DNA of 64,000 nt, taken from a bacterium (GTDB lineage: Bacteria; Bacillota; Clostridia; Oscillospirales; CAG-272). The stretch lies in NCBI GenBank assembly GCA_963627065.1, contig CAVGAA010000002.1, forward strand, positions 45,346-109,345, written 5' to 3'. The notes beneath the pieces were generated by a model. The model saw nothing but the letters and a program-made list of their open reading frames with translations. It made no database searches and was not told the DNA's origin. Numbering within the stretch: the first letter of the stretch is position 1; every line of letters starts with the position of its first letter. Positions 54,475 through 62,715 of this stretch are shown in pieces. The translations under genes and the position numbers were made by a program.

Positions 54475-55884
54475 TTATTTCAGCAGACCTTCCATTTCGC
54501 TCAGAAGCCAAGTGGACGAAATGGCATTCATATTGTTGATGAACAGCACTTTTTTGATGCCTTCCTGCTTGACGTAATCCTGCAGGGACATTCCCATGCG
54601 GTCGACAAAGAAACGGTAGTCCACCACATAAACGGTTTGATATTGGTCAACGAGGAAGGGGACGAAAGCGTTTCCGAAAGATTCTTTTACGACAAGGATT
54701 TTCGATCCGTCCGAGAGATTCGGATTTTTGATTACCGAGTGAGCATTGTCACCGGCAATGAAACAGTTGTATTTCCAGCGAGGTCCGTAGAAATAGCCGT
54801 TCTCCGAACCGTTACCGGTTTTCGTCTGAATGATAGGGTAACTATCGGTGGTGATCTTTTTCTCGTTCTCCTTGCCGTAGTTTTCGAAGGTGTAAACCGT
54901 CATTTTGTTTGTCGCATTCGGCAACCAAGCCTCGACATAGTCCTCTTTGAGCGTGACGTCGGTTACTTTCGCTTGGAGTGAGCCTTTGAAACCGGTAAAG
55001 GTCATCGACTTCCAACTGCCGAGATCGAGCGGTGTTGTTCCGCTCTCCGCACAGAATGCACGGTAAGCGTAGTAAGCCCCTCTTGCGGTCCAGTGGTGGT
55101 CGGTACGGAAATAGAGATATTCGTCTTTGTGTGCCTGCAATTCGGGAAGAATCGAAACTGTTTTTACACCGCTGTTGATTTTGGCGTAGATTTTCGTAAT
55201 CGATTCTTCGGCATCCGATGCACCGATGCTCCGTCGCTCACCTGCACTCATATTGACCGAGTAGGAGAGCGGTACGACAATATCGTAGAGTTCCACATCC
55301 GGCATGACCTCGTGAGCCTTGTTCAGAACATTTGCATATCTTGTTGCTTTATCTTCGTTGTAAACGTAAATTTCGTATGCACTGTCACCTTTGATGTAAA
55401 TGCCGTCGGTCGGTTGCTCAATCGAAACATCACTGCCGTCATCACCGTCCTGCTCCTTGTCTTTGTCGGTCGGCGTTGTGGGGGTAATGATCCGTGTCGT
55501 GCGGATACCGTACAGTTTTTCCAGCGAATGTTGCACGGAAATCAGACCGTCACGCAGGGGGTAGGTGTCGGCGTACCAAGTCGAAACGGCGGAAAAGTAA
55601 GAACCGTCACAAAAACTTTCAAGTGTAAAATGCGGAAATTCCGCAAGTTTCCGCCCTTCGACCTCGGACGTGGACGGTCGCAGAAAAATGAGCAGTCCCA
55701 CTATGGCGATGACGAGGAGCATTCCGAAAAACCCCAAAATTTTCGCAACGTCCGTTTTTTCTTTGGCGTTGAGCGTTACGGGGTGACCTTCCGCCGATTG
55801 CTCGGAGGACTGCTGTTCGGAAATTTGTTCGGGAAGTTTTTGCTCGGAGGGCTGTTTTTTCGGTTGCATATTTTGCGTATCCAT
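54475..55884 (-). CDS. DHHW-family protein (SGNH-like partner of MBOAT acyltransferases)
   Basis: The literal motif FRTDHHWTARGAYYAY, an N-terminal TM anchor after a Gln/Ser-rich tail, and a position immediately downstream of the MBOAT gene. Confidence 0.75.
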   Translation of the reverse strand: MDTQNMQPKKQPSEQKLPEQISEQQSSEQSAEGHPVTLNAKEKTDVAKILGFFGMLLVIAIVGLLIFLRPSTSEVEGRKLAEFPHFTLESFCDGSYFSAVSTWYADTYPLRDGLISVQHSLEKLYGIRTTRIITPTTPTDKDKEQDGDDGSDVSIEQPTDGIYIKGDSAYEIYVYNEDKATRYANVLNKAHEVMPDVELYDIVVPLSYSVNMSAGERRSIGASDAEESITKIYAKINSGVKTVSILPELQAHKDEYLYFRTDHHWTARGAYYAYRAFCAESGTTPLDLGSWKSMTFTGFKGSLQAKVTDVTLKEDYVEAWLPNATNKMTVYTFENYGKENEKKITTDSYPIIQTKTGNGSENGYFYGPRWKYNCFIAGDNAHSVIKNPNLSDGSKILVVKESFGNAFVPFLVDQYQTVYVVDYRFFVDRMGMSLQDYVKQEGIKKVLFINNMNAISSTWLLSEMEGLLK

Positions 55885-55896
55885 TTGAAACCTCCG

Positions 55897-57327
55897 TCAG
55901 AATTGGAAATAAAGGAAAGGGTTGTAGGTGTTTCCGACAAGGCAGAGGAACGAAAGCACCAGAAGGACAACCGGCGACACAACGGACACGGCACTGCCGA
56001 GTCCACGCCATGCGGGGGAAATTTCCTCTGCCGTGCGGAATTTTCCCCTCAACCACGGGAGTACGGGCGTGCAGGCAACCATAGCGGTCAGGAGGAAGAA
56101 CAGATTGTTCAGGAGCGTCAATCTTGCCGTCAGATCCCAGAATCCGTGCCGGAAGAAAAGGCAGGCGAGAGCCGAACCCATTTGCGAGAGGTCTTCGAAA
56201 TAGAAGATGATCCAGCCGAACCAAACGGCAAGCAAAAGTGCGAGGTGACGCAAAATTTTCAAGGGAATCGGCAATTCTTTGCCCGACTTGACGTGCAGGA
56301 GTTTTTCACCGACAAGCAGGATGAACCAGTAAAGTCCCCACAGAACGTAGTTCCACGATGCCCCGTGCCAAAGCCCCGTCAAAAGCCACACGACAAACAG
56401 ATTGAAAATCTGCCGTTTCAGTCCTCGCCGATTGCCACCCAACGGAATGTAGACGTAATCACGGAAAAAGGTGGAAAGGGAGATGTGCCAACGCCTCCAG
56501 AAATCGGTCGCCGAATCGGCACAGTAGGGGTAATTGAAATTTTCGCAATAGTGCAGACCGCACATCAAACCCATGCCGATTGCCATATCCGAGTAAGCCG
56601 AAAAATCAAGGTAAATCTGGAGCATATAAAAGACCGTTCCGAGAAAGACCGTTCCGCTCGAAGCCGTTGCAAGTGACGTGGCGGAGAGTGCCGTATCGGC
56701 AAGAGAACCGCAATAATTCGCAAGAACAGCCTTTTTCGCAAGCCCTATCGCAAACCTTGTAACGCCTGCCGATATGCCGGAAAGGTTGATTTCACGCCGA
56801 CGGAGTTCGGCACAAACGTCGCTGTAACGGACGATAGGACCTGCTACGCATTGATGAAAGAGCGACGCATAGAGCAGGAGGGTAAAGTAATTTTTCTGCG
56901 GTTCGGTTTCCGCACAGTAAACGTCAATGACATAGGAGAGCAGTTGAAAGGTGTAAAAGGAAATGCCGACGGGGAGGACGATGTTCGGCAGGACTGCGGA
57001 AAAGCGGAAAATCGATTGCAAAGTCGATGCGAGAAAGTCGGAATATTTGAAGAACCCAAAAATGAGAATGCAGGAGGCAACCGTCATAAAAAGGACGGTT
57101 TTGCGGTAAAAAGCGATCTGCAAAGAACCGAGTAGGCGACCGGCAAGCCAGCAGATAAAGGTCATAACGGCGAGCAAAAGGAGCAGAGCCGGACCGCTCC
57201 ACGCATAGAAAATCAAAGAAAATATCAAAAGTACCGCATTTTGAGCCTTGACGGTCCTGCGTGTATAAACGAGTGCCATACAAAGCACAAAAAAGACAAA
57301 AAGGAAAAATAAAGACGAAAAGACCAC
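55897..57327 (-). CDS. MBOAT-family O-acyltransferase (AlgI/DltB-like)
   Basis: A polytopic protein with the conserved His region WRRWHISLSTFFRDYVYIPLGGNR. A GTG start (VVFSSLFF) lies 7 nt after AAAGGAG. The longer ORF-track start lacks an RBS. Confidence 0.85.
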   Translation of the reverse strand: MVFSSLFFLFVFFVLCMALVYTRRTVKAQNAVLLIFSLIFYAWSGPALLLLLAVMTFICWLAGRLLGSLQIAFYRKTVLFMTVASCILIFGFFKYSDFLASTLQSIFRFSAVLPNIVLPVGISFYTFQLLSYVIDVYCAETEPQKNYFTLLLYASLFHQCVAGPIVRYSDVCAELRRREINLSGISAGVTRFAIGLAKKAVLANYCGSLADTALSATSLATASSGTVFLGTVFYMLQIYLDFSAYSDMAIGMGLMCGLHYCENFNYPYCADSATDFWRRWHISLSTFFRDYVYIPLGGNRRGLKRQIFNLFVVWLLTGLWHGASWNYVLWGLYWFILLVGEKLLHVKSGKELPIPLKILRHLALLLAVWFGWIIFYFEDLSQMGSALACLFFRHGFWDLTARLTLLNNLFFLLTAMVACTPVLPWLRGKFRTAEEISPAWRGLGSAVSVVSPVVLLVLSFLCLVGNTYNPFLYFQF

Positions 57328-57511
57328 CGAAAAACTCCTTTCAGATAATGAACAAAAAGAGGGAAAAACAATCAATAATATTCTACCATAAAAGCCCCGA
57401 AAATGCAATACCAAAACCGAAAAAATGAGCAATTGAGGTGAAATAAAATCGGGAGGAAATAAAAACACAATTTTTTCGGAAAATCTTCACACAAAAAAAT
57501 GAAAAGAGGGG

Positions 57512-57540
57512 TTGACAAATCCTCCGAAAAGGTGTATAAT
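57512..57540 (+). promoter_or_regulatory. sigma-A-type promoter for the riboswitch and surface-protein operon
   Basis: TTGACA (57512-57517), a 17-nt spacer, then TATAAT (57535-57540). This is an exact consensus. Confidence 0.6.
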
Positions 57541-57542
57541 AA

Positions 57543-57618
57543 CGGCGATAAGAGCAAGATAGTCGCAAGATTATTACGCAAAGCTATAGGGGCTTATTGA
57601 GCCAGCCAGTTGCCGAAT
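57543..57618 (+). promoter_or_regulatory. candidate c-di-GMP-I (GEMM-I) riboswitch aptamer
   Basis: AGCAA, then a GCAA-capped 7-bp hairpin (57558-57575), then ACGCAAAGC (57576-57584), then a second hairpin (57591-57603), then AGC-CAGUUGCCGAAU. The order and sequence of the blocks match my recollection of the Vc2 aptamer. This was not verified with a covariance model. Confidence 0.6.
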
Positions 57619-57655
57619 CACCGTTTTGTACGGTGGTTGGGCATTTTTCATTTTT
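57613..57655 (+). terminator. intrinsic terminator acting as the riboswitch expression platform
   Basis: CCGAAUCACCG (57613-57623) pairs with CGGUGGUUGGG (57631-57641), with one mismatch and one G.U. UUUUUCAUUUUU follows. The 5' arm overlaps the aptamer 3' box. Confidence 0.6.
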
Positions 57656-57684
57656 CAGGGAAAAATCGGAAAGGAGAGCGGAAT

Positions 57685-58506
57685 ATGACGGAACGGTCCA
57701 AGAAAAAAATGAAAATTGTGTCCTCACTCGTTATGTGCATTCTGAGTTTGTTTTCCGGAATCACGCTGTCGCTGTCTTGGTTTGCGAAAAATCGGGAAGT
57801 CACCGGCACGGGAATGCGGTTGTCAATCGACGGGAGCGGTCTTCTGCTCGGTTGGGAGTGCTATTCGGTTGTCACCGACACGGAAGGGGACAATTTTTAC
57901 TTTGAAAAAATCTCCAATGACGATGCCAAACTCGGGACATACAAACTGCTCGAAAACAAATACCAACTGCTCGTCAAACTCTGCTTTCAGATTGACATCG
58001 ACACCGTGACCGTAACGGCGAAGACCTCGACCGACTATTTTCAGGGGGACGGCGAAGACGAAAGGCATTTTCTGCTTGACGGGGACGGCAAATACAACGG
58101 CGAAACGAAAGATTACGTCAATTCACTCTGCGGTGTGGTGAGCCTTTCGACCTTGACGGGCGAGGTGAAAACCGACAGTGAGAATTATGACTGTTACATT
58201 GAAAACCTGCCGACCGATACGGCGGTTTTTGTGGACGATACGAAAAACACGGGTGCGAAAATTCTGCCCGAAATTACGATCGGTAGCAATATCGTAACGA
58301 TTGACGGTACAATCAAACTCAGTGACGGCACGGACGAAAAATGCAAAGTCGTGTATCTGTTGATGTCCTATGACAGAGATCTGATTGCAAAAGTCTTTTC
58401 GGCAAATCTCGGCAACCCGAATATCAGCGGTGTGGTCGGTACGGGTAGTGTTGTGCCGTCTGTTCCGTTCGATTGCGATTTCGGCATTTCCGTGAAAGAA
58501 GGTTAA
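57685..58506 (+). CDS. secreted or membrane-anchored hypothetical protein with a WFAKN N-terminal motif (273 aa)
   Basis: The RBS is AAGGAGAG. The N-terminus has a basic n-region, a hydrophobic core, then LSLSWFAKNREVTGTGMRLSIDG. This resembles the TasA/camelysin SipW-type signal-peptide pattern. I recognised no other family. Confidence 0.6.
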   Translation: MTERSKKKMKIVSSLVMCILSLFSGITLSLSWFAKNREVTGTGMRLSIDGSGLLLGWECYSVVTDTEGDNFYFEKISNDDAKLGTYKLLENKYQLLVKLCFQIDIDTVTVTAKTSTDYFQGDGEDERHFLLDGDGKYNGETKDYVNSLCGVVSLSTLTGEVKTDSENYDCYIENLPTDTAVFVDDTKNTGAKILPEITIGSNIVTIDGTIKLSDGTDEKCKVVYLLMSYDRDLIAKVFSANLGNPNISGVVGTGSVVPSVPFDCDFGISVKEG

Positions 58507-58509
58507 AGC

Positions 58510-61029
58510 ATGGGAGAAAACAGAGTGAAAAAAAGAATGGTCGCAACGCTGGCGATCCTGTTTGCCGTGCTTTCGGTGAGTGTCGGAACGCTGTGTTGGT
58601 TTGCAAATAATTCGGTTAATTTCCCGACCGATTTCGGCGGTTCTGCGGAAACGGCATATTTCGGCGGAGGGGACGGCTCTGCCGACAATCCGTATATCAT
58701 CAACAACAAAGTACACCTTTACAACCTTGCATGGTTGCAGTATCTCGGTTATTTCAATATGCGGAGCGACCTCAATGACGGAAAATCCCAGACCTATTTC
58801 AAATTGACCGCCGACATCGATATGGACGGACTGTCCATTCCGCCGATCGGTACGGAACAGTACCCCTTTGTCGGCAATTTTGACGGCAATCACCACACAA
58901 TCCGTTGTGTCAATATTTCCAATCGGGAGAACGATTTAACGATAAGACCAACCGATGCAAAATTTGATGGCACGGGCGATGATGCTCTTTTAACCACAAT
59001 CGAAACAGATGAGAGCAATCGGAGCGAGGTGAGCATTGTAGGGCTATTCGGCGTGGTCGGCGATTATAGCGACTATGTGAGCGGGGACGACGGTTATTCG
59101 GCAATCTATACCGATTTCGATGCAGGCAAAATCACCCTCCAAAACTTTTATGTCGATAAAATTCACGTCACGAGCGGTTCGGGTGCAACGCTGGTCGGAC
59201 TTACGGCAGGTTATGTGAGTGCAAACCTCTCGAACATCGGCATTTACCGCAGTGACATTACTTTAACGGCAGGCACGACGGAGGGATCGACTTTGGCAGA
59301 CGGAGCGATTTCCTATTACGCATTGGTCGGGAACAAGTCCGCAAAAACGAAAGCGACCGACTGGGGGAGCAGTGACGACGGAAACGACTGGGGCGGTTCA
59401 ATCGATATGCGAACCCTCGCAAGACGTGTCAACTATATGATGGCGACATCGGAAAATGCATATTACCAATATGTCCATATCGCAACATTCCGAAATGACA
59501 ATTACCATTTGTATGCAAGCTCCCAGCGTGTCAAAAATTATATTTTCGAATACGGTTACAATCCGAACGGTTCGCAATCATTAGGAACTGATGCAAACCT
59601 GCTCGGCGGAAGTTATAAAACAAGTTCTTCGACAACGGAAAGCCTCTATACGGTTTTGCCGATCAATGTCAACAAATCGGCAATGGGATTAGACAGCGAT
59701 GACGAAACGGAAACGGTATCAAGAACGGTTTATAAATATAACGGAAGTTTCAACACGGGTTTCGATGTCTTTTATCCCACATCGACAAAGACGAATGCGA
59801 CATTCAAATTAAATACGGAATATAAAAATGCCACATCCGAAACGGTATCGAATAATACGGGGTATATTGTCGGATTGGGAACGACAACGAAAACGAGTGC
59901 CGTGCAAGGTGCAATTCAAATCAATGTTCGTTTGCGGTCTTCCTCATCTTCCGTTAAAAACTCCTTTAACGGAACGAGTTACGGTGCGTCGACTTTTGCC
60001 CTGATAACCTACTGCGGAGTCGGGGATTCCGGTTTTTGCTTTATCAAAGACAGTTACAATACGACCGATTCCGGCTATACCGGACCTACGGGACTTGGTC
60101 AAGTAACATTGTCGGAGGCGACTTACCTCAACAAAGAGGCGGACGGAACATACCATTACGAAAAAGTGCGGAGTGATTCCAATTTCGAACGGTATATGGG
60201 AATCGGAGACGGCAACACGAATATTTACGGTTTGTCTTTCAATAGCCAGTACGGCTTTGGAATCAACAATGCCTCAACGGTTATTTCTTATGACGGTGAG
60301 AACGGAACGGAAAAATTGGTGACCGGTGCTATCAATTTCAATGTTCAAGATGCGGGAATCATTACTGCTATTGTCGGAACATATTACGGTTCAGATGTTG
60401 AACAAAATGCATTTACACTTTACAAAGTCGACAAAGAAGGTTTAACCGTCGGTTCTTCCGCATCGAGCGGAGGCTTGACAACCGTCAACCAAATCTATGA
60501 GTATAACGGCGAATATTATATCAACGAAAATCCGAATGACAGTGGAACATTACGGTATGACAGAACTTGGTATGCAAAAGGTAAGAAAAACGGAAATATT
60601 CCGTGTAACTATGCCTGCTATATCGAAATACCGGTTCCGGCAGGCGATTATGTCATCGGTTATGACGGAGTCGACACAACCTGCCGTAACGGCTATCTGA
60701 TGTACCTTGACATCGGTGCGAACGGATCGGGGAGCGGTTCGGGCAGTAGCACGTCCTATACCATTTCCGGCGTGCAATTCGTCAATACCGACACCGTCAC
60801 GAACGAAACCTACCCGACCTATACCGCAGTGACCTTCAAACTGACCGATGCGACCGGCGAAGTCAAAACGGTTCTTTTCGAACGCAAAGGCGAGGTGGAC
60901 GAACTCGACACGGCAGTCGCGTACCAAAGCACGGGCATCACGGCAACCCCGAACCCGACCGCCAAAGCCGAAGAAACAACCATACAAAAATCAACCCATA
61001 CCGATGACGAAACAGGCAACACCGGTTAA
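58510..61029 (+). CDS. large secreted hypothetical protein with a WFANN N-terminal motif (839 aa)
   Basis: Its N-terminus parallels the upstream gene (VGTLCWFANNS). DNPYIINNKVHLYNLAW...KLTADIDMDGLSIPPIG...PFVGNFDGNHHTI then resembles the beta-helical module common in Firmicute surface proteins. It is Thr/Ser/Gly/Asn-rich, has a GSGSGSGS linker, and has no LPXTG. Confidence 0.65.
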   Translation: MGENRVKKRMVATLAILFAVLSVSVGTLCWFANNSVNFPTDFGGSAETAYFGGGDGSADNPYIINNKVHLYNLAWLQYLGYFNMRSDLNDGKSQTYFKLTADIDMDGLSIPPIGTEQYPFVGNFDGNHHTIRCVNISNRENDLTIRPTDAKFDGTGDDALLTTIETDESNRSEVSIVGLFGVVGDYSDYVSGDDGYSAIYTDFDAGKITLQNFYVDKIHVTSGSGATLVGLTAGYVSANLSNIGIYRSDITLTAGTTEGSTLADGAISYYALVGNKSAKTKATDWGSSDDGNDWGGSIDMRTLARRVNYMMATSENAYYQYVHIATFRNDNYHLYASSQRVKNYIFEYGYNPNGSQSLGTDANLLGGSYKTSSSTTESLYTVLPINVNKSAMGLDSDDETETVSRTVYKYNGSFNTGFDVFYPTSTKTNATFKLNTEYKNATSETVSNNTGYIVGLGTTTKTSAVQGAIQINVRLRSSSSSVKNSFNGTSYGASTFALITYCGVGDSGFCFIKDSYNTTDSGYTGPTGLGQVTLSEATYLNKEADGTYHYEKVRSDSNFERYMGIGDGNTNIYGLSFNSQYGFGINNASTVISYDGENGTEKLVTGAINFNVQDAGIITAIVGTYYGSDVEQNAFTLYKVDKEGLTVGSSASSGGLTTVNQIYEYNGEYYINENPNDSGTLRYDRTWYAKGKKNGNIPCNYACYIEIPVPAGDYVIGYDGVDTTCRNGYLMYLDIGANGSGSGSGSSTSYTISGVQFVNTDTVTNETYPTYTAVTFKLTDATGEVKTVLFERKGEVDELDTAVAYQSTGITATPNPTAKAEETTIQKSTHTDDETGNTG

Positions 61030-61091
61030 ATTCCGACTCGAAAAAATTGACACTCGGAGAACTTTTTTTTCGCAAAAAATCGGAAAAACGC

Positions 61092-61120
61092 TTGACAAAT
61101 TTCGAAAAATATGTTATAAT
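61092..61120 (+). promoter_or_regulatory. promoter of the MATE leader
   Basis: TTGACA, 17 nt, TATAAT. This is an exact consensus. Confidence 0.55.
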
Positions 61121-61132
61121 CCATACATACGG

Positions 61133-61181
61133 CGTGTAGCATTTCTGCGTAAATCCAGTTGCAGATTGCTACACGTTTTTT
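61133..61181 (+). terminator. terminator-like hairpin 1 in the MATE leader
   Basis: CGTGTAGCA...TGCTACACG, with an inner CTGC/GCAG pairing, followed by TTTTTT. It starts about 6 nt after the predicted TSS. Confidence 0.55.
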
Positions 61182-61245
61182 ATGTTGCCGAGCGAATATC
61201 GGCGAAAAAACGGTCAATTCTATGGGCAATCGTGTGGCAGAAAAT

Positions 61246-61288
61246 GCGTAAATCCGGATTCGTTCGGAATTATGCGTTTTATTTTTAT
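61246..61288 (+). terminator. terminator-like hairpin 2 in the MATE leader
   Basis: GCGTAAATCCG / CGGAATTATGC (one mismatch, one G.U), followed by GTTTTATTTTTAT. It lies just upstream of the RBS. Confidence 0.45.
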
Positions 61289-61308
61289 GCTGTTTAGGAG
61301 GGTAAATT

Positions 61309-62715
61309 ATGGACAGCGAAAATCAGTTTTTAGGGACGGAGCGTATTGGCAAGCTGATGCGTAAGTATGCCGTTCCCTGTATCATCTCGTTGCTGGTCGG
61401 TGCACTTTACAACATTGTTGACCAGATTTTTATCGCAAATGCAAGTTATCTCGGCTCTTTCGGAAATGCCGCAAATACCGCCGTTTTTCCCGTGACGGTG
61501 GTGGCTCTCGGAATTGCGGTGTTTATCGGCGACGGCTGTTGTGCATTCGTAAGTATTGCACTTGGAAGGAACGCCCGTGAGGACGCCCACAAATCGGTTG
61601 GAAATGCCGTTGTTCTATGCGTGGCAAGCAGTATCGTGCTGACAGCAGTCTACCTGATTTTCAGTGAACCGATTCTCAAACTTTTCGGCGGAACGGTCAA
61701 TGAGGAAACACACGTTTTTGCCAAAGAATATTTCTTTTATATCACGCTCGGCATTCCGTTCTATATGTTCGGGCAGGCGATGAACCCCATTATCCGCAGT
61801 GACGGAAGTCCGAAATTCGCTATGGTAGCCACCGTCTCCGGTGCTGTTGCGAATATCATTCTGGATCCGCTCTTTATTTACGGATTTCATTGGGGTATGA
61901 TGGGAGCGGCAGTTGCAACTGTTGCGGGGCAGGTACTCACGGCGGTTCTGTCGGCTTGGTATCTTGTACACATGAAAGTTGTAAAACTGAAAAAGGAAAG
62001 TTTCAAGCCGAATCTGAAACTGATCCCGAGATTTTTAGTTTTGGGGCTTACCAGTTTTTTGGCACAAATCTCGCTTGTCATCTCTATGGCGGCAGTGCAG
62101 AATATGTGCATGAAATACGGTGCAAAAGATTCCGTATTCGGACAGCCTGAGTATGCCCAGATTCCGCTTGCCGTGCTCGGTATCGTGATGAAATTCTTCC
62201 AGATTGCCATATCGATTGCAATCGGTCTAGCGGCAGGATGCATTCCGATTGCCGGATATAATATCGGAGCGAATAAAAAGGACCGTGCAAAGTCGCTGTT
62301 CACACGGTTGCTGTTGGTCGAGTTGATTGTCGGTGCGGTTGCACTGGTCATTGTGGAGGTATTTCCTTTGCAGATTGCAATGCTGTTCGGTGCGGCAAAC
62401 GAGAGCGAATATTATGCGGACTTTACGGTCAAGTGCTTCCGGATTTATCTGTGCCTGATGCCGGTTGCAACCATGAATAAAGGCACGTTTATTTACCTGC
62501 AGGCACTCGGAAAAGCATTTGCATCCACAGCGGTTTCCATGACGAGAGAAATCATTTTCGGCGTATCGCTCCCCATTGTTATGCCGTATTTTTGGGGACT
62601 TGACGGACTTTTGTGGTCATTCCCCGTGGCAGATATTCTGACATTCATCATCGCCGTGTTCTTCATCCGACAGACCTACCGTGAACTGTCCGATACGAAA
62701 AATAGTGAAAAGTGA
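61309..62715 (+). CDS. MATE-family efflux transporter
   Basis: Twelve-TM pattern. The N-terminus KLMRKYAVPCIISLLVGALYNIVDQIFIA is typical of MATE/NorM-like proteins. The RBS is TAGGAGGG. Confidence 0.9.
   Translation: MDSENQFLGTERIGKLMRKYAVPCIISLLVGALYNIVDQIFIANASYLGSFGNAANTAVFPVTVVALGIAVFIGDGCCAFVSIALGRNAREDAHKSVGNAVVLCVASSIVLTAVYLIFSEPILKLFGGTVNEETHVFAKEYFFYITLGIPFYMFGQAMNPIIRSDGSPKFAMVATVSGAVANIILDPLFIYGFHWGMMGAAVATVAGQVLTAVLSAWYLVHMKVVKLKKESFKPNLKLIPRFLVLGLTSFLAQISLVISMAAVQNMCMKYGAKDSVFGQPEYAQIPLAVLGIVMKFFQIAISIAIGLAAGCIPIAGYNIGANKKDRAKSLFTRLLLVELIVGAVALVIVEVFPLQIAMLFGAANESEYYADFTVKCFRIYLCLMPVATMNKGTFIYLQALGKAFASTAVSMTREIIFGVSLPIVMPYFWGLDGLLWSFPVADILTFIIAVFFIRQTYRELSDTKNSEK

Follow-up and report, generated by a model that had tools for sequence, protein, structure and literature searches.

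A candidate transcriptional ON switch of the c-di-GMP-I class in the leader of an uncharacterised, putative surface-protein operon of a CAG-272 clostridium

The prototype of the c-di-GMP-I (GEMM-I) riboswitch class, Rfam family RF01051, is the Vc2 aptamer of Vibrio cholerae, in which A47 is said, in the work of Smith et al. and of Kulshina et al. from 2009, to intercalate between two ligand bases. Another description mentions A47 only for its backbone contact with the ligand (PMC5888326), while C92 forms a Watson-Crick pair with the second base of the ligand (PMC6140456, PMC5888326) and the base at position 20, either G20 or A20, provides a Hoogsteen contact to the first (PMC6140456). Vc2 binds c-di-GMP with picomolar affinity and cGAMP at 10 uM, whereas its G20A variant binds c-di-GMP at 53 nM and cGAMP at 120 nM, and a natural clostridial A20 aptamer, Cbe 1-2 of Clostridium beijerinckii, binds them at 30 nM and 463 nM respectively (PMC6140456). 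The published A20 aptamers bind both c-di-GMP and 3',3'-cGAMP, ranging from the cGAMP-selective Gs1761 to the c-di-GMP-preferring Cbe 1-2, and their affinities, in the tens of nM, lie orders of magnitude apart from those of the picomolar G20 aptamers (PMC6140456). As to regulation, Bc2 of B. thuringiensis BMB171 is a GEMM-I transcriptional ON switch for cap, the gene of a cell wall-anchored collagen adhesion protein (PMC4933901).

Here we analyse a window, the whole 64-kb stretch of forward-strand DNA from 45,346 to 109,345 of contig CAVGAA010000002.1 (assembly GCA_963627065.1), from a CAG-272 member of the Oscillospirales (Clostridia). By computation we find in it an aptamer belonging to the class, whose fold covaries among relatives, a terminator which overlaps this aptamer in a conserved manner, and a conserved cassette of genes downstream. 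The explanation that fits the whole best, and that we consider likely, is an ON switch of the c-di-GMP-I class, with c-di-GMP as its likely ligand and exported proteins as the predicted products. The correspondence with Bc2 would lie in the siting of a GEMM-I aptamer within the 5'-UTR of a Firmicute gene, in terminator/anti-terminator competition and in a surface adhesion protein being up at high c-di-GMP (PMC4933901); in contrast to the collagen-binding adhesin of that system, two AWF..N proteins of no known family stand here, and the window switch is a prediction from sequence. With pilM of Geobacter metallireducens the window shares an adenine at the G20-equivalent position and the logic of an ON switch with mutually exclusive aptamer and terminator, the latter sequestering the ligand-pairing cytosine, C75 in pilM and C57613 in the window (PMC9262584). 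However, pilM senses 3',3'-cGAMP in a Gram-negative deltaproteobacterium and serves pilus and exoelectrogenesis genes (PMC9262584), whereas the setting in Clostridia, the interchange of A and G among orthologues and an EAL neighbour in relatives point to c-di-GMP for the window. Cbe 1-2, the aptamer of Nelson et al. (2015), is alike in being a natural clostridial GEMM-I fold with A20, which takes c-di-GMP and cGAMP through the same pocket (PMC6140456), and presumably differs in sequence and gene context. The features of the locus are collected in Table 1.

Table 1. Coordinates of the regulatory leader and the operon, numbered from the first letter of the window.
Feature	Position	Strand	Description	Basis
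Sigma-70-type promoter	57512..57540	+	TTGACA 57512-57517, 17-nt spacer, TATAAT 57535-57540	Sequence, 12/12 matches
c-di-GMP-I (GEMM-I) aptamer	57543..57617	+	Full length	RF01051 match, custom-model score, covariation
A57553	57553	+	Vc2 G20-equivalent; GEMM-Ib-type signature	Model position 11 G versus window A
First arm	57554..57579	+	Junction pairs G57554-C57579 and C57555-G57578; hairpin 57559-57564/57569-57574; GNRA loop GCAA 57565-57568	Rfam structure line
A57580	57580	+	Equivalent of A47; first A past the ACGC junction; adenine in all 69 related aptamers	RF01051 alignment
Second arm (P3)	57582..57611	+	A57582-U57585/A57608-U57611, G57589-G57590/C57606-C57607, G57591-C57593/G57601-C57603	RF01051 alignment
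C57613	57613	+	C92-equivalent; also pairs with G57641 in the terminator; C in 67/69 related aptamers	RF01051 alignment
Intrinsic terminator	57611..57655	+	Stem 57611-57624/57630-57643, loop 57625-57629, U-tract UUUUUCAUUUUU 57644-57655	MFE fold
Ribosome-binding site	57670..57676	+	AAAGGAG, 8 nt upstream of the start codon ATG at 57685	Sequence
Gene 1	57685..58506	+	273 aa, no known family; N-terminal basic stretch, transmembrane helix, then LSWFAKNREVTGTGM	
Gene 2	58510..61029	+	839 aa, no known family; basic stretch, transmembrane helix, GTLCWFANNSV, then beta-rich domains	

The assignment to the class is carried by the covariance models. A first-pass annotation of the sequence had proposed a c-di-GMP-I aptamer and named an Infernal search with RF01051, and with RF01786 (c-di-GMP-II) as a control, as the means of checking it. 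RF01051 matches 57543-57617 of the forward strand over the whole of its length (model positions 1-87) with 54.2 bits, the gathering score being 35 bits, and the control finds nothing in 57400-61400 even with the limit set at E<=10, which bears the proposal out. With 4227 Rfam families run on the 64-kb window, the E-value of 8e-8 is far beyond chance, and no other match in the window exceeds a gathering score. Two related clan models had lower scores than RF01051 and were suppressed, and the other Rfam families with hits at E<=10 in 57400-61400 amount to eukaryotic snRNA and snoRNA noise, with nothing credible among them. A custom model, R1, scores the aptamer at 82.8 bits and finds only this one in the window, and independent RF01051-class scores of 50-63 bits were obtained for 18 related aptamers from 13 related loci. 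The window RNA is a genuine member of the known c-di-GMP-I riboswitch class, and ordinary in kind.

The fold is that of the class in most of its particulars. The five blocks that had been recognised by comparison with Vc2 all map, in the same order, onto the RF01051 model: the GCAA box, the GCAA-capped hairpin (57559-57574), ACGCAAAGC (57576-57584), the second hairpin and GUUGCCGAA (57609-57617). With Vc2 the window RNA has in common the three-helix junction, a first hairpin capped by a GNRA loop, ACGCAAAGC as the junction, the equivalents of A47 and C92 and the 3' GUUxCCGA tail. Vc2, however, has G20 and an extended P3 carrying a tetraloop receptor, as against A57553 and a P3 that is 12 nt shorter in the window. 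By this same 12 nt P3 falls under the Rfam consensus length, 15 consensus positions being replaced by 3; as regards the tetraloop-receptor contact, the GCAA loop at 57565-57568 corresponds to a GNRA loop in 23 of 23 seed relatives, and the receptor side is the P3 that is without the 12 consensus nucleotides. In 23 relatives the share of paired cells is 97.5%, as compared with 17-43% in slid controls, and 10 of the 19 pairs have changed on both sides, including all six of the first hairpin and pairs 43/70, 50/64, 52/62 and 53/61 of the second arm. The earlier pairing of G57554-C57555 with G57578-C57579 reappears in the Rfam alignment, both pairs being invariant in the 23 relatives. Not so the proposed register of G57583-C57584 with G57605-C57606, which is unsupported by covariance model and covariation; these favour A57582-U57611, G57583-U57610, C57584-G57609 and U57585-A57608, with G57605 lying within a conserved unpaired AG and C57606 having G57590 as its partner. 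The reading AUAG-GGCU in the second arm likewise needs correction, the sequence having four Gs at G57589-G57592.

The aptamer lies close behind a promoter which had been described as TTGACA-17-TATAAT and which is indeed there, with 12 of 12 matches; relatives carry strong promoters at similar positions. Transcription would start near 57546-57548, and a start near 57547 would leave a closing helix of only ~3-4 pairs (G57547-C57619, A57548-U57618, U57549-A57617 and G57552-C57614). This P1 helix is a candidate only, having two possible registers, neither of them consistently supported on inspection of relatives. The caveat, raised in the first reading, that the 5' strand is short for a closing helix is softened by a distance of 13-16 nt between the -10 box and position 20 that recurs in 14 relatives with strong promoters.

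The competing terminator suspected from the sequence is real. In the MFE fold of 57543-57660, U57611-C57614 are paired with G57640-A57643 and A57616-U57624 with A57630-U57638, forming a hairpin with a dG of -21.5 kcal/mol followed by the U-tract at 57644-57655, and the terminator state has -35.6 to -38 kcal/mol as against -19 for the ligand-free aptamer state. The aptamer 3' end and the terminator 5' arm have nucleotides 57611-57617 in common, including the ligand-pairing C57613, so that the two structures are mutually exclusive, as had been claimed. The overlap is kept in ~48 of 69 related aptamers, where the terminator 5' arm begins 3-11 nt inside the aptamer; the terminator stems of the related aptamers covary, and their sequences vary by lineage. 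Because of the shared nucleotides the design reads as an ON switch, and together with the conservation of the overlap this supports the earlier proposal of transcriptional control; we infer from it the direction of regulation in vivo.

In such a switch, transcription from the promoter at 57512-57540 would put the beginning of the aptamer very close to the 5' end of the transcript, where 57543-57617 would fold as a GEMM-I three-way junction. Without ligand, 57611-57617, C57613 included, would pair with 57637-57643 and complete the strong intrinsic terminator, transcription would stop at the U-tract and the operon would be off. Binding of a cyclic dinucleotide during transcription would allow the aptamer to keep 57611-57617, such that the terminator could not nucleate and RNA polymerase would read through into both genes. 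We regard it as very improbable that the element works instead as an OFF switch, that it acts at the level of translation, or that it is the decayed and non-functional remnant of an aptamer ahead of a constitutive terminator. The P3 cut down relative to the Rfam consensus and the short P1 would be in keeping with such readings, but competition of aptamer and terminator for the same nucleotides is ON logic, in which a separate anti-terminator is neither needed nor visible; the ribosome-binding site at 57670-57676 lies outside both structures; and a high-scoring full-length aptamer with compensatory changes, whose overlap is kept in dozens of lineages, does not look decayed.

The transcriptional ON switch would govern two genes that are translationally close-packed, gene 2 starting 3 nt past the stop of gene 1. 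Their description in the first-pass annotation as an uncharacterised surface-protein operon was fair, for on both proteins Pfam gives no match and NCBIfam a single far-sub-threshold one, and both have an N-terminal basic stretch and transmembrane segment. They also have in common an N-terminal "AWF..N" export-type motif. A word-indexed homology search with the gene 1 protein, alone and as a 25-sequence profile, returned essentially only itself, whereas an exhaustive phmmer search found 106 cluster representatives; the gene 2 protein has >1300 relatives, none of them named. An AlphaFold model of the gene 1 protein from a 3-sequence alignment was unusable (pLDDT 33.7) and was discarded. For the gene 2 protein an AF2 model (pLDDT 77) gave one significant Foldseek match, a partial one to 3n6z, a structural-genomics "putative IgA1 protease", followed by weak CBM-like beta-sandwich matches, and no function is assigned from these.

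The layout of aptamer, overlapping terminator, ~270-aa gene and ~830-aa gene recurs at ~45 related loci in gut Clostridia and Bacilli, and the cassette is conserved at 44 loci, a gene 1 homologue occupying the same slot. The operon next to it in relatives opens with a gene for an EAL-domain protein (PF00563, 60 bits), is preceded by its own GEMM-I aptamer, with G20 in 8 of 9 distinct sequences, and includes a SipW-like peptidase (NF046067, E 4e-15, under the NCBIfam equivalog cut-off). A cassette product and a protein of this SipW operon have an N-terminal module in common (hhalign probability 96.6%, E 6e-10). Given the shared AWF..N motif and the SipW-like peptidase of the neighbouring GEMM-I operon in relatives, the products would be exported, processed cell-surface or matrix proteins made at high c-di-GMP. 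Cap, the adhesin under Bc2, is presumably an LPXTG-type protein.

A parallel of another kind is the tapA-sipW-tasA operon of B. subtilis, which encodes secreted matrix proteins bearing a special signal peptide that is cut by the dedicated SipW signal peptidase, and which is regulated by protein repressors, not by a riboswitch. The likeness consists in the adjoining SipW-like gene in relatives and in products with a common N-terminal motif. The differences are that the mature proteins here are without detectable sequence similarity to solved structures, that a regex screen of ORFs of at least 180 aa finds no sipW gene in the window and that the NCBIfam model of the SipW-cognate signal peptide has no match among the window's proteins. 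Kinship of the products with TasA or camelysin is unsupported by sequence, because searches of PDB sequences with profiles of the small-protein family and of the "TFAWFSMN" family of the SipW operon gave nothing meaningful; what is shared is a family-specific AWF..N motif only. On the 44 ORFs of 180 aa or more in the window, motif regexes yielded no credible GGDEF, EAL, HD-GYP, PilZ, CD-NTase or SPase I protein, and no cGAMP-synthase gene; a lone "EAL" motif match was dismissed, the N-terminus of its host protein reading, as we take it, like that of UxaC.

One question then is which ligand the aptamer serves. The first-pass annotation had overlooked A57553 at the G20-equivalent position. The guanine on which selectivity for c-di-GMP depends, conserved in the model, is here replaced by the adenine that defines the GEMM-Ib subclass (PMC6140456), a substitution that leaves the assignment to the GEMM-I fold unaffected. 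Of the earlier claim of a c-di-GMP aptamer, the class is upheld by RF01051, but exclusive specificity for c-di-GMP is not to be assumed, because the contact is made by A57553, which may loosen ligand choice. Of 45 distinct cassette leaders, 27 have A at position 20, 17 have G and one has C, counts that lack phylogenetic independence; the base flips among near-identical orthologous leaders, and the closest relatives of the window also have A. Since the canonical G20 contact is not conserved in the window, the identity of the ligand rests on analogy and context. On these grounds c-di-GMP is most likely the physiological ligand, being favoured because position 20 alternates between A and G in orthologous leaders and because the EAL/SipW operon with its own GEMM-I aptamer adjoins the cassette in relatives. 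With A57553 at this position, c-di-GMP would be expected to bind via a protonated adenine, with an affinity below that of G20 aptamers, and by analogy with the published A20 RNAs the window aptamer probably also binds 3',3'-cGAMP in vitro.

A GEMM-Ib switch with 3',3'-cGAMP rather than c-di-GMP as its physiological ligand would leave architecture and ON logic unchanged, and we consider it improbable. A57553 does occupy the position whose G-to-A change defines cGAMP-binding GEMM-Ib (PMC6140456), and A is the majority base in the cassette leaders, but A20 by itself makes for a bispecific and not a cGAMP-selective aptamer, both in Vc2 G20A and in Cbe 1-2, the latter preferring c-di-GMP (PMC6140456). 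Moreover, the alternation of A, G and even C in orthologous leaders is hard to square with a change to another signal, the operon alongside the cassette in relatives has a gene for an EAL protein, of the family of c-di-GMP phosphodiesterases, the regex screen of the window brought up no cGAMP synthase candidate, and the characterised selective examples come from Geobacter, where different genes are controlled (PMC8835794, PMC9262584).

A less remote variant, though still doubtful, is that the A20 aptamer is by design a c-di-GMP sensor of lower affinity, or one that senses both c-di-GMP and cGAMP, forming a two-threshold circuit with the G20 aptamers of the same genome. The G20 leaders, with their high affinity, would then respond first, and the adhesin cassette would follow only once the signal had risen further. 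In several relatives (L007, L013, L026, L005 and L008) a single genome has A20, or C20, before the cassette and G20 before the adjacent EAL/SipW operon, and the picomolar and tens-of-nM affinities of published G20 and A20 aptamers would suit such a division (PMC6140456). But there are exceptions, since L003, L012 and L016 have G in both places and in L019 the cassette is preceded by G and followed by A; the cases counted are not independent of phylogeny, and the window holds a single aptamer. Returning to c-di-GMP as the favoured ligand, we may ask in what system the switch would take part. As a speculation, which we hold to be possible but rather unlikely as a whole, the riboswitch, the small gene and the large gene would be the output arm of an undescribed c-di-GMP-controlled, SipW-dependent surface-fibre or adhesin system, widespread in gut Clostridia and Bacilli, in which the frequent change from G20 to A in the leader, raising the c-di-GMP threshold or adding a response to cGAMP relative to the G20 aptamer of the EAL/SipW operon, would make a two-tier riboswitch circuit.

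Taken alone, the element adds another GEMM-I riboswitch to those that standard Rfam annotation should flag. Its interest lies in the company that it keeps, two unnamed protein families in a fixed cassette behind a putative cyclic-dinucleotide ON switch at ~45 related loci, which gives these family-less proteins a functional hint, namely that they may belong to the cell surface or matrix and be produced at elevated c-di-GMP. That orthologous leaders have now A, now G at the G20-equivalent position would likewise constitute a natural experiment, outside Geobacter, on how the affinity or the choice of ligand is tuned.

The leader of the operon for the 273-aa and 839-aa proteins is a conserved riboswitch of an already known class, very probably a transcriptional ON switch. 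When the 64-kb window was compared with all 4227 Rfam families, the sole match above gathering score was RF01051 (c-di-GMP-I), at 57543-57617 of the forward strand (model positions 1-87; 54.2 bits, cut-off 35; E = 8e-8), in agreement with the first-pass annotation, which had proposed this class from the sequence and named the model that would recognise it. A permissive rescan of 57400-61400 (E<=10) gave no match to c-di-GMP-II, the control named there, and two related clan models scored below RF01051; the other matches, to eukaryotic snRNAs and snoRNAs, were dismissed as noise. Direct reading reproduces the leader as first given, two small slips apart; among its letters one G was missing from the run G57589-G57592 and the remainder stands. 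The pairing first drawn for the lower stem of the second arm is not supported: Rfam alignment and covariation give A57582-U57611, G57583-U57610, C57584-G57609 and U57585-A57608 instead, G57605 lying within a conserved unpaired AG and C57606 pairing with G57590. Its score, fold and covariation, and its agreement at two of three ligand contacts, place the element almost certainly within RF01051.

The comparative evidence comes from scanning genomes with a profile built on large-protein relatives, which yielded 80 loci, mostly from MAGs, of gut Clostridia and Bacilli/'Mollicutes'-type lineages. A custom covariance model built from 23 leaders and searched back across the window and all these loci (906 kb) found 69 aptamers, just one of them within the window; independently, 18 aptamers in 13 sampled loci exceeded the Rfam gathering score (50-63 bits). 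Standard pairs fill 97.5% of the pair cells in the seed of 23 sequences; sliding the partners by 1-3 columns lowers this to 17-43%. Two-sided changes occur in 10 of 19 pairs, including all six of the first hairpin. Of the distinct aptamers, 45 precede the large gene by 0.8-2.1 kb, and hence lie ahead of a small first gene, and four are immediately ahead of the large gene. Several Bacilli-type loci (L057, L038, L050, L068, L076, L034) carry two or more GEMM-I aptamers within 10-15 kb, some on the opposite strand, which suggests clusters of riboswitch-controlled units around large-protein paralogues.

In the minimum-free-energy fold of 57543-57660 the dominant hairpin (-21.5 kcal/mol) pairs U57611-C57614 with G57640-A57643 and A57616-U57624 with A57630-U57638. 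Its 5' arm takes up the aptamer's final seven nucleotides, including U57611, the second arm's last pair, and C57613, the equivalent of Vc2 C92 and partner of one ligand base, so that the sharing of nucleotides between aptamer and terminator, as originally proposed, is recovered. Likewise, about 48 of the 69 aptamers are followed by a hairpin and U-run whose 5' arm begins 3-11 nt inside the aptamer; since this overlap recurs with stem sequences that vary by lineage, it is a conserved design rather than chance. Folds constrained to keep the aptamer pairs reach about -19 kcal/mol at best, whereas the terminator state lies at -35.6 to -38 kcal/mol, and termination is therefore the default. Without ligand the terminator would form and transcription stop, read-through requiring ligand-stabilised folding of the aptamer during transcription; this combination makes the leader very probably an ON switch. 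Because ribosome-binding site and start codon lie outside both structures, control is transcriptional.

The exact promoter noted at first reading is confirmed, its -10 box ending 13 nt before position 20 (Vc2 numbering). The short 5' strand raised there as a caveat would not be peculiar to this leader: among relatives with strong promoters (>=10/12 matches) the spacing falls into two groups, 13-16 nt (14 cases, L026 among them) and 21-28 nt, so that aptamers starting nearly at the transcription start are common in the group. The closing helix remains a candidate because covariation fixes no register.

Features of the window and of the second operon found in relatives
Feature	Position	Strand	Remark
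Sigma-70 promoter TTGACA-17-TATAAT	57512-57540	+	12/12 consensus matches
Candidate closing helix	G57552-C57614, U57549-A57617, A57548-U57618, G57547-C57619	+	putative
U-tract UUUUUCAUUUUU	57644-57655	+	directly 3' of hairpin
RBS AAAGGAG	57670-57676	+	outside aptamer and terminator
Gene 1 ATG	57685	+	outside aptamer and terminator
MBOAT-family O-acyltransferase	55897-57468	-	divergent from riboswitch promoter
DHHW/AlgX-like SGNH protein	54475-55884	-	divergent from riboswitch promoter
Relatives' operon, gene 1			EAL-domain protein; PF00563, 60 bits, cut-off 31
Relatives' operon, gene 2			256-aa membrane protein
Relatives' operon, gene 3			230-280-aa protein, N-terminus ...TFAWFSMN..V.A.GM
Relatives' operon, gene 4			SipW/archaeal-type signal peptidase I homologue; NF046067, E = 4e-15, below equivalog cut-off
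Relatives' operon, gene 5			~520-aa polytopic membrane protein

The third contact bears on the ligand. At the position preceding the G-C junction pair on its 5' side, where the Rfam alignment has a conserved G, the window has A57553, overlooked at first reading and the hallmark of the GEMM-Ib variant. In Vc2 this G20 contacts one guanine of c-di-GMP, and aptamers of the GEMM-Ib type, which bind cGAMP, are defined by an A in its place (PMC6140456). Affinities of wild-type Vc2 are picomolar for c-di-GMP and 10 uM for cGAMP, and those of its G20A mutant 53 nM and 120 nM; Geobacter Gs1761 RNA prefers cGAMP, whereas Clostridium beijerinckii Cbe 1-2, with a natural A20, binds c-di-GMP at 30 nM and cGAMP at 463 nM, via a protonated adenine (PMC6140456). 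Thus A20 allows cGAMP binding without dictating the ligand. Position 20 varies between distinct cassette leaders, 27 of which have A, 17 G and one C, and near-identical orthologous leaders flip there (G in L018/L019, A in L023/L027/L060, C in L013); the closest relatives, with large proteins 61-63% identical, also have A. The A47 equivalent (A57580) is A in 69/69 aptamers and the C92 equivalent C in 67/69. Such interchange of A and G in one regulatory slot would be easier to explain by a single common signal, and c-di-GMP is, to our knowledge, the sole ligand that binds tightly to both versions. We consider c-di-GMP the likely physiological ligand; the window aptamer itself may be selective, bispecific or just a c-di-GMP sensor of lower affinity. 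The C-bearing leader (L013 5004-5078, UAAUC-GCAAA) still reaches 55 bits against RF01051, and its terminator overlaps the aptamer as elsewhere; we know of no published ligand data on a C20 variant.

In at least nine relatives (L013, L007, L003, L019, L008, L012, L016, L014, L005) a second RF01051 aptamer, with G20 in 8/9 distinct sequences, directly follows the large gene and heads a conserved five-gene operon (L013 8757-13990), making a two-aptamer circuit possible; its predicted EAL domain ties the relatives' neighbourhood to c-di-GMP turnover. The window lacks this operon, the gene after the cassette being that of a MATE transporter, and the cassette of the closest relatives likewise has no such partner, its neighbours being unrelated housekeeping genes. 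Cassette and riboswitch are therefore a self-contained unit, and one which relocates as such, given that the neighbourhood in L081 (8818-12472) and L084 (860-4512), between Fe-alcohol dehydrogenase and glycyl-tRNA synthetase genes, is wholly unlike the window's.

The regulated proteins are uncharacterised, as first held: neither has a Pfam family, and NCBIfam gave a single match far below threshold. The large protein has >1300 database relatives, none named and none with a Pfam domain. The small protein is fast-evolving; a word-indexed search returned just itself and exhaustive phmmer 106 cluster representatives. In 44 loci the same-slot gene is homologous to it (28-39% identity among Clostridia members, one outlier at 15%), with common blocks LG.Y..L..YQ.L.K, N.LSSVV, SYD..L..VFS.N.GN and IPF.CDF. 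The likeness of its family to the 'TFAWFSMN' protein of the relatives' operon is limited to the first ~49 residues (profile-profile, hhalign: probability 96.6%, E = 6e-10), comprising a basic stretch, a hydrophobic/transmembrane helix and (A/S)WF..N..V.G.GM; the large protein carries the same motif (GTLCWFANNSV). This module thus occurs in three otherwise unrelated families (window 57685-57830 and 58510-58620; L013 10737-10880). Plausibly it serves in export or processing as a signal common to these families, with the SipW-like peptidase as the cutting enzyme, a reading that stays conjectural because the curated NCBIfam SipW-cognate signal model does not match the window proteins; it may constitute a distinct SipW-type signal-peptide class missed by current curated models. 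In the AlphaFold model of the large protein (pLDDT 77, from an 86-sequence alignment) mostly beta structure follows an N-terminal helix. One structural match is significant, to the Bacteroides ovatus structural-genomics entry 3n6z, named 'putative IgA1 protease' (226 aligned columns, probability 0.99), and the remaining matches, to CBM32/CBM35-type beta-sandwiches, are weak; the model would suit an anchored surface or glycan-binding protein. The small-protein model (pLDDT 34) is unusable.

Upstream, the divergent MBOAT and SGNH genes would form an AlgI/AlgJ-type pair, predicted to acylate a surface polymer; their adjacency to the riboswitch is not kept in the closest relatives. Just past the operon lies a second perfect TTGACA-17-TATAAT promoter with extended -10 TG (61092-61120), followed by a ~190-nt leader before the MATE efflux gene (ATG 61309). 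This leader folds unusually well (-60.4 kcal/mol, z -4.55) into two strong hairpins that share the 11-mer UGCGUAAAUCC and each have a U-run behind them; 61092-61310 has no Rfam match at E<=10, and the leader could act as an attenuator or represent a regulatory leader not yet described.

The window element resembles the GEMM-I ON switch Bc2, which de-represses an adhesin gene of B. thuringiensis at high c-di-GMP (PMC4933901), and in mechanism it is similar to the GEMM-Ib ON switch of Geobacter pilM, in which the cytosine that pairs with the ligand is tied up in the terminator (PMC9262584). Its interest is modest, and lies in an A20 variant in a clostridial setting with natural A/G alternation, in the linking of cyclic-dinucleotide signalling to two unnamed protein families and, in relatives only, in the possible two-aptamer circuit.
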